This document shows positions 845 through 56,082 of a stretch of 64,000 bases of DNA, one piece after another. Origin of the DNA: a virus; IMG/VR virus record IMGVR_UViG_3300007735_000799, positions 1-64,000 of that record, one strand, 5' to 3'. The notes beneath the pieces are model-generated. The model made no database searches, was not told where the DNA came from, and saw only the letters and a list, made by a program, of their open reading frames with translations. How positions within the stretch are numbered: position 1 is the first letter of the stretch; each line of letters starts with the position of its first letter. The position numbers and the translations under genes are program-made.

Positions 845-2704
<1,860 letters not shown>

Positions 2705-2718
<14 letters not shown>

Positions 2719-3415
2719 CGCCTGTATTTAGTGGCTGCGCTAAAGCCTTCCAAGCCACAGGAAACAGCGGTTCAATCAATTTAGAAATGGCTGCGGCGTA
2801 TTCCCGCACTTCCCATTGAGCGTGTGGGTCTGCACGGAGCGCGTACACGCGGGCGTAAGCGGCTAGGCTTCCTGTCCACCACCATTCAGTATAAGTGCCT
2901 TGTGGAAGAACAAACCGGGCTTGTTCAGGAGCAACACCCTCTTTCAACAGAAAATTGTAAGTGTCAACAGCATCCATAGACACACGATTGTATACCCTAT
3001 CAAAATCTGAAACCACAGGCTCGTCAATAAAATCATCGCTGCCTTGCTTGGCTCCACCGCTTGGTGCAGATCGCCAATCAGGAACATAGAAGTCAGGTTC
3101 ATCTTTAACATACCGACGACTTACTTCATTTTCCACAAAGCCTTGCTTGTGCTTGAAAAGTTGTGTGCGAATAGAGATAGGAGCCTTGATGTGCAAGGTA
3201 ATTTGTGGATGAGCAAACGGAGTCCAATGCTTATGCTTGGCAAGATAGCCAATCAACTTAGCATCTTTTTCCGTCATCTCGGTTGCCTTTTTATTGAATG
3301 AAACACGGGCGGCATTCACAACCATCAGATCGTTGCCCATGTGAGAAATCAAGGAAACAAATCCCTTGTCTAAAACCTGAATGGTGTTAGCATCATTCAC
3401 GCCTGCCATACTCAT
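2705..3415 (-). CDS. thyX: Flavin-dependent thymidylate synthase
   Basis: NAARVS, HWTPF, RTQLFKH...NEVSRRY ThyX motif, EQARFVLPQ. Confidence 0.95.
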
Positions 3416-53040: not shown

Positions 53041-53064
53041 GGTCTAGTATATAGCATTCCGAAG

Positions 53065-53149
53065 CGGGCAGAGAAGGATTCGAACCCTCGGAGGCATTCA
53101 CCTCGGCGGTTTAGTAAACCGCTGCATTAGACCACTCTGCCATCTGCCC
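53065..53149 (-). tRNA. tRNA-Ser(ACU)
   Basis: GCGGT-TTACTAA-ACCGC; long variable arm and G73 (Ser body). Confidence 0.85.
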
Positions 53150-53959: not shown

Positions 53960-54030
53960 TTGCCCGACCTAGATTCGAACTAGGACAAAGAGAACCAAAG
54001 TCTCTCGTGCTACCGTTACACTATCGGGCA
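53960..54030 (-). tRNA. tRNA-Gln(UUG)
   Basis: AGAGA-CTTTGGT-TCTCT; U1-A72. Confidence 0.92.
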
Positions 54031-54058
54031 GGTGCATTCCTGCACTAGACGCTCGCTA

Positions 54059-54271
54059 TTAGCAAGCGGCGTTGTTACCGCCGAACAGTCCCATCACCAC
54101 ATTGGCGACAACGACCACGGCATTCTTCAGCCATACTGCACCGTTCCAAGCGAACGGAAGCAGAGCGAGGGTAATCAACATGCTACGATTGATGTAAACC
54201 TTTGAGAGAAGGCAAGACAACTTATCACAGCCACCAGTAACAGGGCATGAGCCCGATTCAAACTTAGCCAT
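54059..54271 (-). CDS. Small membrane protein
   Basis: 70 aa with two hydrophobic segments; AGGAGA RBS. Confidence 0.55.
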   Translation of the reverse strand: MAKFESGSCPVTGGCDKLSCLLSKVYINRSMLITLALLPFAWNGAVWLKNAVVVVANVVMGLFGGNNAAC

Positions 54272-54319
54272 TTTTTTCTCCTTATGTAAAAGTTAATTGG
54301 GGATGGCGATCCCCTGCAA

Positions 54320-54694
54320 TCAGTTACGCTTCTTGCTCTTACGAGAAACCTTGGTCTTACCCTTGGTTCCTGTGTAATTCTCAAGATCGTAATCCTGACT
54401 TTCATAGACCTTATCAGTAAGGTCTTCAATCATGGTTGAAAGCATGTCAATGTTATCGTTGAATTCTCTTCGCACATCGTTAATCTGCGAATGCATTTCA
54501 AAACGAAGACTGGAAATTTCCGAATCAATCTTTTTGTTCATCTCTTCGTAAACACCACTAATGGTCTTCTGATTCTCATCGTCACGCTTCTTGGAAGAAG
54601 TAACAAGACTTCCAATGAAACTAAATGCGTTAGCGGCGAGAGAAACACCAAGCAATCCATAAAGGTAAGTATCCATACTGTATTCTCCTTTCAA
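54320..54694 (-). CDS. Membrane-anchored coiled-coil protein
   Basis: N-terminal TM segment followed by a heptad-rich region. Confidence 0.55.
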   Translation of the reverse strand: MKGEYSMDTYLYGLLGVSLAANAFSFIGSLVTSSKKRDDENQKTISGVYEEMNKKIDSEISSLRFEMHSQINDVRREFNDNIDMLSTMIEDLTDKVYESQDYDLENYTGTKGKTKVSRKSKKRN

Positions 54695-54726
54695 GAGAAG
54701 GTGAGTTTATTTAGACCCGCTATCCA

Positions 54727-55086
54727 TTATAGCAGACCAAAACTTTTAATCAAGTCTGTATTTGAGTGTTCTATTTGATGACAGTTAGCACACAACAATT
54801 CGCATTTTGAAAGTTCGTTATATCTTTCTTTTGTCAACAAACCGTTTCCATTTAATTCGTGGGATTTTTGTGATGGGTCTTTGTGATGAAAATGAAATAC
54901 ACCCGGATGACCTTTAAACCCACATCTTTGACATTTACCACCCAACAATTCAACAAACTCAATTTTTGTCTTCCATCTTCTTTTAGAAACTGCACAAGAA
55001 CCACATATAGTTCTTCTGCTTTTTTTCTTTGATTGTTTAGATGGATGAGATTTAAATTCCTTGTTACAGTGTTTGCATTTGTTCAT
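54727..55086 (-). CDS. Free-standing HNH endonuclease
   Basis: CKHC...CGSC zinc ribbon; GGKCQRCG, FHFHHKDP...K, KCELLCANCHQIEH; GAGGAG RBS. Confidence 0.85.
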   Translation of the reverse strand: MNKCKHCNKEFKSHPSKQSKKKSRRTICGSCAVSKRRWKTKIEFVELLGGKCQRCGFKGHPGVFHFHHKDPSQKSHELNGNGLLTKERYNELSKCELLCANCHQIEHSNTDLIKSFGLL

Positions 55087-55125
55087 AGATTAGCACACTC
55101 CTCTAATCTATTTAGTATCCTAAAG

Positions 55126-55383
55126 TGCTCCGGGTGGGACTCGAACCCACAACCTACCGATTAACTTACCACTTCGGCTTACGCCGCCCTTGCGGTTTGT
55201 GGTCTGGACTTTGCCTTCATCCGTTCTGGATGCCCGCCGTCAAGTCTCTACACCTTCCCTTTCGGGCTTGGCTCGGCGTTGGGTCTTTCAACCGTCCACC
55301 GAATTTGACGAGTTTCATGTTTTGTATTCCTACAAAACTGCTCCTATTGAAGTCGGCTACTCTACCAATTGAGTTACCAGAGC
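55126..55383 (-). tRNA. tRNA-Lys(UUU) interrupted by a group I intron (exons 55350-55383 and 55126-55164)
   Basis: Joined exons give a 73-nt cloverleaf with GCCGA-CTT|TTAA-TCGGT and acceptor GCTCTGG/CCGGAGC. Confidence 0.92.
55165..55349 (-). ncRNA. Group I intron, IC3-like, 185 nt, no ORF
   Basis: P1 CUUC-AAUA-GGAG with U.G at the splice site; P AAATTCGGTGG, Q AACGCCGAGCCAAG, R GTGTAGAGACTTGACGG, S AAAGTCCA; terminal G. Confidence 0.92.
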
Positions 55384-55398
55384 ATATTAACTTGTAAG

Positions 55399-55473
55399 CG
55401 TTCCTGATAGGATTTGAACCTATGACCTGATGCTTAGAAGGCATCTGCACTATCCGGGCTGTGCTACAGGAAC
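55399..55473 (-). tRNA. tRNA-Arg(UCU)
   Basis: GATGC-CTTCTAA-GCATC. Confidence 0.92.
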
Positions 55474-55481
55474 TTAGTTTT

Positions 55482-55754
55482 TTAAGATTCCTGTTTTATA
55501 CTTTTAACAGAATCCAATGTGAAACTGCGCCAAGCACTCTTATCCAAATCCCAAACGGAAATGGTGGTATCGCTCTTCTTTCTAGGAGTCTTCGCTGTTG
55601 TGGATTCAACAACAGGAAGAACAGGAAGATGCTCGGTCTTCAAGGTGCAGCGCATCACTCGTTCAGAACCATCACGCTTGGTGAAGGTAACAACACAAAT
55701 GTTGTTGTGCAAAATTGCGCTGTATTCGTTTCGCTTATCTTCGGTGGTAATCAT
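55482..55754 (-). CDS. WYL_2/SH3 beta-barrel protein (DUF2693-like)
   Basis: VTFTKRDGSER.MRCTL...VWDLDK.AWRSF. Confidence 0.8.
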   Translation of the reverse strand: MITTEDKRNEYSAILHNNICVVTFTKRDGSERVMRCTLKTEHLPVLPVVESTTAKTPRKKSDTTISVWDLDKSAWRSFTLDSVKSIKQES

Positions 55755-55851
55755 CGTCGCGTTTCCTTGTCGTCAGTATACTTCATATAAGCCGACCATG
55801 CAAGAGTAATTGCTACAAAAACCAAAAGAAAAAATGTAACTGCGGAATCCA

Positions 55852-56082
55852 TTATTGATCCAACTTGTTATCGCTCAACCCACGAAACAATCCACTAAAG
55901 AATGCGTGTGTAAAGAAAAACGCTAGTGGAATCCATAGTGGAGAAAGAGTCCATCGCCAAGACCAATCCAATTGATCCATAACCTTCAGCACCACCAAAG
56001 TAATGGTGGAAGCGGCGGCGGCTGTTGCAACACTATTAAATGTATTGTTGGTTTGTTCCATGTGGTATATCTTACCACACAA
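55852..56082 (-). CDS. Small two-TM membrane protein
   Basis: LVVLK...LDWSW.W.LSPLWIP motif. Confidence 0.6.
   Translation of the reverse strand: MCGKIYHMEQTNNTFNSVATAAAASTITLVVLKVMDQLDWSWRWTLSPLWIPLAFFFTHAFFSGLFRGLSDNKLDQ

Follow-up and report, generated by a model that had tools for sequence, protein, structure and literature searches.

A compact group I intron splits the anticodon loop of a tRNA-Lys(UUU) gene in an uncultured freshwater phage

The window analysed in this work is the first 64 kb of the IMG/VR virus record IMGVR_UViG_3300007735_000799 (G000), which comprises 119,266 bases, is estimated to be ~52% complete and includes genes encoding a DNA polymerase, a UvsX-like recombinase, a DnaB-like helicase and tail fibres. 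The metagenome runs that contain this stretch come from river, lake and wetland; the phage is a freshwater one. A 20-kb portion of the window, compared by megablast with the phages in GenBank, had no match. ARAGORN with default settings detected 17 tRNA genes clustered on the minus strand; run without introns, it did not call a tRNA-Lys. With introns allowed, a tRNA-Lys gene was called as c[55125,55383] (ttt) i(35,185), its intron of 185 nt following position 34 of the gene, and this split gene is the sole tRNA-Lys of the whole record. The joined exons render a normal cloverleaf of 74 nt, tRNA-Lys(ttt), with the loop CUUUUAA. The ARAGORN call, the joined exons and the sequence itself confirm that the tRNA-Lys(UUU) gene is split between U34 and U35, where the preliminary description of this DNA had placed it. 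The features of the locus are the following:

55398 to 55473, minus strand: tRNA-Arg(UCU), upstream neighbour in the cluster and synteny marker (ARAGORN, blastn of loci).
55350 to 55383, minus strand: 5' exon of tRNA-Lys(UUU), with acceptor, D arm, 5' anticodon stem GCCGA, and C32, U33 and U34 (55350) (ARAGORN, sequence).
55165 to 55349, minus strand: group I intron of 185 nt, ORF-less and IC3-like, from C1 to omega-G (RF00028, covariation in 12 relatives, exact absence in L052).
55125 to 55164, minus strand: 3' exon of tRNA-Lys(UUU), with U35, U36, A37 and A38, 3' anticodon stem UCGGU, variable loop, T arm and acceptor (ARAGORN, sequence).
54715 to 55123, minus strand: HNH cassette of 409 bp, present or absent as a unit and flanked by repeated CTAAATA (blastn of syntenic loci).
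54727 to 55086, minus strand: free-standing HNH endonuclease gene, 119 aa, starting ~40 nt past the tRNA 3' end (phrog_2255, E 1.3e-19).

A search of Rfam at the gathering threshold does not report the intron. The group I model RF00028 nevertheless matches positions 55359-55183 on the minus strand over its full length (1-253), with E-values of 1.7e-11 in a search of 401 bases and 1.2e-12 in the whole record, and with a score of 48.5 bits that narrowly misses the gathering score of 50, by 1.5 bits. No second match to this model was found in the 119-kb record. According to the excerpts of Williams 2020 (bioRxiv 10.1101/2020.01.27.920355), there is no bacterial sequence among the seeds of RF00028.

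The structure of the intron, comprising P1 to P9 with the P3/P7 pseudoknot, was written from the window sequence and counted on an alignment of 12 relatives, five of them from tRNA-Lys, four from tRNA-Leu(UAA) and three from phage capsid genes. Among the 52 pairs, 90.8% of the cells were paired versus 76.4% in shuffled alignments, and changes on both sides were found in 32 pairs versus 16.2 in the shuffles, none of the 500 shuffles equalling these values. As a control, sliding the 3' partners by 1-3 columns made pairing fall to 31-42%. The helices that covary are P2, P3, P5, P6a, P7, P8, P9 and the inner P9 hairpin, so that a conserved P3-P9 core with the P3/P7 pseudoknot is upheld by compensatory changes among relatives that are up to ~25% different. 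MAFFT misaligned the P1 columns, and P1 was read by eye. The elements, all on the minus strand, are:

55341 to 55352: P1, in which C32, U33 and U34 plus C1 (55352-55349) pair with the guide GGAG (55344-55341), U34.G being the 5' splice site (read from sequence).
55344 to 55346: possible P10, in which UAG can pair with UUA of the 3' exon (read from sequence).
55319 to 55338: P2 hairpin, GUUUUGUA-GGAA-UACAAAAC, with 8 of 8 pairs changed on both sides among relatives.
55233 to 55312: P3, 55312-55307 with 55241-55233 and a CGG bulge, enclosing a domain with P4, P5, P6, P6a and the P7 5' strand (covariation).
55273 to 55302: P4, 55302-55297/55278-55273.
55282 to 55293: P5, 55293-55290/55285-55282, with a GAAA loop.
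55252 to 55272: P6, 55272-55271/55253-55252.
55257 to 55266: P6a, with a GAAA loop.
55242 to 55246: P7 5' strand (GACUU).
55207 to 55232: P8 hairpin CAUCC-AGAAC-GGAUG (55232-55218), J8/7, and P7 3' strand AAGUC (55211-55207) (covariation).
55168 to 55203: P9 domain, with the outer stem ACCAC/GUGGU, a variable small hairpin CC-GCAA-GG and the conserved CGGC-GUAA-GCCG, followed by AAG up to omega-G at 55165 (covariation).

The inner stem of P3 is paired in 100% of the cells and covaries in 4 of 4 pairs; P7, the 3' strand of which closes the P3/P7 pseudoknot, is likewise paired in 100% and covaries in 3 of 5 pairs, and P8 is also 100% paired. Taken together, the RF00028 match at E 1.7e-11 and the covariation across the 12 relatives support a compact, ORF-less group I intron. 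The helices that had been listed earlier, namely P1 with its U.G, P2, the GAAA loops of P5 and P6, P7, P8, CGGC-GUAA-GCCG and the terminal G, reappear in this structure. The register of P3 has to be changed: it had been given as CGUCA/UGACG, but covariation favours CUCG plus UC paired with GA, the CGG bulge and CGGG, and the copy in phage HTVC120P (L001) breaks the former version. Similarly, the hairpin that had been named P9 is present, but it constitutes only the inner hairpin of P9, whose outer stem is ACCAC/GUGGU. The length of 185 nt, below the ~205 nt of the Azoarcus ribozyme, was correct; it is not a minimum, since relatives of 181, 183 and 184 nt are found at the tRNA-Lys site.

In every tRNA copy, the final CUU of the exon is paired to the GAG of the guide, the U.G falling at the junction. 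No cut other than U34|C1 with omega-G|U35 provides at once the U.G wobble, a G at the intron's 3' end and a loop of 7 nt; the 3' exon starts with UUAA, and omega-G (55165) is the only boundary that restores that loop. One relative, at positions 2545-2735 (+) of locus L012, has the junction of its tRNA-Lys(UUU) one base later, CUUU|UAA, between positions 35 and 36, and its guide is GGAA instead of GGAG, which makes U35.G the wobble. The splice site is thus naturally shifted with a compensating change in the guide, and this copy matches the Lys.4Ug type. In addition, the syntenic intron-less locus L052 aligns in blastn exactly up to U34 and picks up again past the HNH cassette. The assignment of the splice sites agrees therefore with the shift in L012, with the end of the L052 allele and with the breaks of RNA contigs at 55165 that are described below.

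Two pattern scans, as the preliminary description had envisaged for phage tRNA-Lys(UUU) genes, detected 13 further IMG/VR contigs with this insertion, 12 of them with the intron at 34/35 (L005, L007, L011, L013, L014, L015 and L019-L024) and one, L012, at 35/36. These 13 viral introns range from 181 to 233 nt and are hosted by diverged tRNA bodies. Two metagenome contigs carry the insertion as well. The same anticodon arm was found uninterrupted in 69 viral contigs, versus 14 with the intron. The Bacteroidetes MAG ADurb.Bin174 (L101:7650-7982, MWCX01000004.1) has an intron of larger size whose P7-P9 tail is the same, followed by the same tRNA-Lys 3' exon, |TTAATC, at the end of an 8-kb stretch.

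Outside tRNA-Lys, the nearest relatives lie at 34/35 of phage tRNA-Leu(UAA) genes. Five phage tRNA-Leu introns (L006, L009, L010, L017 and L003) have a P9 tail identical to that of the present intron. In length, the present intron (185 nt) differs both from the Leu relatives (196-225 nt) and from that of Azoarcus (~205 nt), and it is shorter because its P5, P6a, P8 and P9a are minimal hairpins. In introns of 181-185 nt, a complete core is packed into a very compact natural ribozyme, which could find use as a minimal scaffold. The classical tRNA-Leu(UAA) introns of cyanobacteria and plastids (Leu.3Ug) share the 34/35 site and the CUU 5' exon, in a different tRNA, and the J3/4-P4, P6, P7 and J8/7 sequences of classical IC3 tRNA introns are near-identical to those of the present intron, whose core also presumably resembles that of the Azoarcus tRNA-Ile intron. 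More distant are the capsid gene introns of Pelagibacter phage HTVC120P and Chosvirus KM23C739, of ~180-190 nt, which have the same core and 73-80% identity over parts, but interrupt a gene for a protein, have no inner P9 hairpin and fall into a clade of their own. In the tree of introns, those of tRNA genes stand apart from those of capsid genes with a support of 99/100, whereas Lys and Leu introns are not resolved from each other, most forks having a support below 80; therefore, no direction of transfer between Lys and Leu can be given. RF00028 scores 77-78 bits on both KM23C739 introns and finds no match at E 0.01 in HTVC120P.

Some further observations were made at these loci. HTVC120P has one capsid intron (L001:1474-1664) and KM23C739 has two (L002:1447-1627 and 2156-2336); the capsid is annotated as two CDS, between which these introns lie unannotated. 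In LR756511.1, a 595-kb uncultured phage, a tRNA-Leu(UAA) gene is split at 34/35 by a 700-nt relative (L003:854-1553, +), which encodes a 189-aa HNH ORF that extends from the 5' part of the intron to just before the R/P7 core sequence; this split tRNA-Leu was not called by ARAGORN, and the record is unannotated. In L018/L102, at a contig end, the 3' exon is CUAAGC and the tRNA may be a tRNA-Arg(UCU).

The insertion site had been put forward as new, which does not hold. Besides the 13 further viral contigs, the seeds given in excerpts of Williams 2020 (bioRxiv 10.1101/2020.01.27.920355) include Mle24.Lys.3Ug, Mpe6.Lys.4Ug and Dba165.Lys.2Ug, from bacterial assemblies, 3Ug denoting in those excerpts an insertion after the third base of the anticodon loop. 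The present intron lies after loop position 3 of a tRNA-Lys, is preceded by U at -1 and ends in omega-G. In the excerpted sequences, the Lys.3Ug seed Mle24 shares with it the tRNA-Lys, the CUU| site, the U at -1, omega-G and the P1 CUUC...GGAG, but comes from a bacterial assembly and differs in its P3-P4 sequence and in a long P5 insert. Judged from the same sequence excerpts rather than from a direct alignment, the core of the phage intron is nearer to the Leu.3Ug seeds, which have its P9-tail 3' motif, than to Mle24. As far as those excerpts extend, the Lys.3Ug types occur in bacterial genome assemblies, whereas the present intron is located in a phage tRNA cluster. On the basis of these comparisons, it is a new phage case of an intron type already listed for bacteria, not a new kind. 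The phage-tRNA setting seems to be unpublished: Hausner et al. 2014 (PMC3984707) stated that every phage intron known at the time lay in a gene for a protein, although phages have many tRNA genes, and full-text literature searches returned no paper describing a group I intron in a phage tRNA.

The HNH gene downstream of the split tRNA was assigned through phrog_2255, the Pfam HNH match to the 119-aa protein (18.8 bits) being under the cut-off of 21.4. Comparison by blastn of the window (54000-56000) with the fetched loci showed that the cassette block is exactly missing in L007, L095 and L052. The two CTAAATA copies, at 55115-55109 and about 54713-54707 of the minus strand, resemble a T4-type late promoter; in the relatives without HNH, one copy alone occupies that place, so that the cassette appears to bring or duplicate its own promoter. 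The loci have in common the order tRNA-Arg(UCU), tRNA-Lys and a conserved small gene, with three allelic states by blastn synteny:

L052: no intron and no HNH.
L007, L094 and L095: intron only.
Window and L011/L105: intron plus HNH.

The loci L005 and L015/L103 also carry the intron and a downstream HNH gene, the alignment being confined to the tRNA-intron-HNH block. Altogether, HNH homologues with 48-64% full-length identity adjoin five of the 14 intron-bearing viral tRNA-Lys genes, downstream in four, including L005, L011 and L015, and directly upstream in L022, while no HNH homologue above 38% identity was found at the intron-less loci (n=69). The L011 HNH has 52% full-length identity, with a stretch of 77% in a second frame, and may be frameshifted. 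In L105:1290-1560 (G002, IMGVR_UViG_3300045125_000034), where intron and HNH have ~90% identity, the split tRNA-Lys was not called by ARAGORN; its 5' acceptor strand contains one additional G and its 3' acceptor strand is altered, so that this tRNA may be decaying.

Collaborative homing is the spread of an ORF-less intron by means of a free-standing endonuclease aimed at its insertion site (PMC3984707). The elements of such a pair are found here, namely an ORF-less intron, an adjacent free-standing endonuclease gene, and alleles without one or both of them, and we infer that the three-state pattern fits collaborative homing. The psbA gene of cyanophage S-PM2, with F-CphI, and a second phage system (PMC3984707) likewise combine an ORF-less intron and an adjacent free-standing endonuclease gene; those systems target a protein gene, whereas the putative target here is a tRNA gene. 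It is probable, to judge from this arrangement, that the HNH gene helps the intron to spread.

It can also be the case that the intron splices and the HNH is an unrelated, intron-less homing cassette of phage tRNA clusters, as T4 SegB is. The link between HNH and intron could be positional, since nine of the 14 intron-bearing genes are without an HNH homologue in the DNA examined and phage tRNA clusters often contain HNH genes. A CTAAATA motif and a ribosome-binding site belong to the cassette itself, it is absent from the closest relative, L007, which keeps the intron, and weaker HNH matches lie 1.6-2 kb from the intron-less tRNA-Lys in four loci. Close homologues, however, are found only at intron-bearing alleles (5/14 versus 0/69), and they abut the split gene, on either side of it. 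We regard an unrelated HNH as rather doubtful on these grounds.

The explanation that we hold with good confidence is that of a self-splicing IC3-type intron, an optional selfish insert that has spread with the HNH gene by collaborative homing. According to the fold, the split tRNA-Lys gene would be transcribed as a 259-nt precursor, in which the guide GGAG would pair with C32-U33-U34 and C1, so that U34.G marks the 5' splice site. After U34, the precursor would then be cut by an external guanosine, omega-G (55165) would occupy the G site in P7, and the 3'-OH of U34 would join U35, giving a tRNA-Lys with the loop CUUUUAA and a free intron. The HNH endonuclease most likely would cut the intron-less tRNA-Lys alleles in mixed infections, and repair would then copy in both the intron and the endonuclease gene. 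The three natural allelic states provide a clean system for the study of collaborative homing at a tRNA gene; the occurrence of the HNH gene on either side of the split tRNA-Lys, and that of an HNH ORF inside the tRNA-Leu intron, could be likewise useful for homing tests.

An alternative that had been advanced for this locus is that the intron is a functional device, which would gate the supply of tRNA-Lys through splicing or shield the precursor from anticodon nucleases of the PrrC type. It is true that tRNA-Lys(UUU) is the substrate of PrrC and that the split gene is the only tRNA-Lys of the record. But the close syntenic relatives L052 and L077 have no intron, so that it is dispensable, and uninterrupted anticodon arms exceed interrupted ones among the viral contigs (69 versus 14). 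The spliced product has an ordinary CUUUUAA loop, which would be as cleavable as that of any tRNA-Lys, and the same family occurs at CUU| of tRNA-Leu(UAA), which is no PrrC target. In addition, the 119 kb, about half of the genome, showed no match to RNA ligase families: PF09414 had no match in G000 (~52% complete), nor had PF09511, for which the control was likewise without match. Neither gating nor shielding is supported by any of these observations, and a device of either kind is highly improbable. The insertion at 34/35 could instead be explained by the CUU that every C32-U33-U34 tRNA offers to the guide, which is a simpler reason for the site than nuclease shielding.

RNA was searched for in four libraries, all of them consisting of assembled contigs, from which neither the ends of molecules nor their levels can be read. 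Three of them contain contigs that cover only the intron:

X15: 55178-55340.
X16: 55165-55341.
X18: 55165-55281.

Both exons, the flanks and the HNH gene are uncovered; since these are assembled contigs, that lack of cover proves nothing. Neither the exon-exon joint nor the circle joint was found in the contigs of the four libraries. The contigs of two studies end at 55340 and 55341, with no loose end, and the cover as a whole hints, though weakly, at an intron present as an RNA of its own, excised in vivo.

Two of these contigs, X16 record 2 and X18 record 13, from two lake metatranscriptome studies, continue past omega-G not into the tRNA but into CACTGTGCAGCGAGCC. This 30-mer corresponds to G000:79912-79883 (minus strand, outside the window; L097 584-613), directly after ...GGCGAACTT, and falls in an ORF of 103 aa (G000 80112-79801) of no family. 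The join is located after AACUU and before C, and CUU|C is the exact complement of the guide GGAG. No sequence similarity able to cause a k-mer chimera was found between the intron and the target sites. The pattern of the 3' junction had 0 matches in viral_contigs and 0 in metagenome_contigs, the near-identical intron copies that were fetched are all in tRNA-Lys, and the 103-aa ORF is continuous in G000 and in its relative G001. Among the 29 clusters found for the target protein there are full-length forms and a frameshifted one (P0024), with no read-through product. An ectopic DNA allele is therefore less likely, since the junction is not in contigs and the target gene is uninterrupted.

It is possible, and this is the reading to which we tentatively lean with somewhat less than even confidence, that the junction results from attack at the RNA level by the excised intron, in what would be the initial step of reverse splicing. 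A rare DNA copy of the intron at an ectopic site is also a possibility to be taken seriously, though a doubtful one, and an artefact of the libraries is unlikely. If either reverse splicing or a DNA copy were the cause, the junction would also support the 3' splice site and the specificity of the guide. Reverse splicing has been proposed as a route of group I introns to new sites, with no direct experimental evidence according to PMC3984707 (2014), and a junction arising at the RNA level would be a direct natural sighting of it.

That the intron is splicing-dead and the tRNA-Lys gene a decaying pseudogene, as might be suggested by the Rfam score under the gathering cut-off and by the relative G002 (L105), whose split tRNA-Lys goes unrecognised by ARAGORN and whose acceptor stem seems disturbed, is very improbable, because all core helices are intact, with compensatory changes in relatives up to ~25% different, the exons fold to a normal tRNA, intron-only contigs are present in three RNA libraries, and the intron's 3' end occurs fused to a different RNA, precisely at omega-G and following a CUU, the product expected of ribozyme chemistry.

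The annotation of phage tRNAs overlooks genes, as illustrated by the split tRNA-Lys that default ARAGORN missed, and, according to a pattern search, uncultured phages have at least 14 tRNA-Lys genes and 6 tRNA-Leu genes with a member of the family. In the present phage, ARAGORN also called a tRNA-Ser with the unusual anticodon ACU (window 53064-53149, minus strand), which scores 54.5 bits with the Rfam tRNA model.
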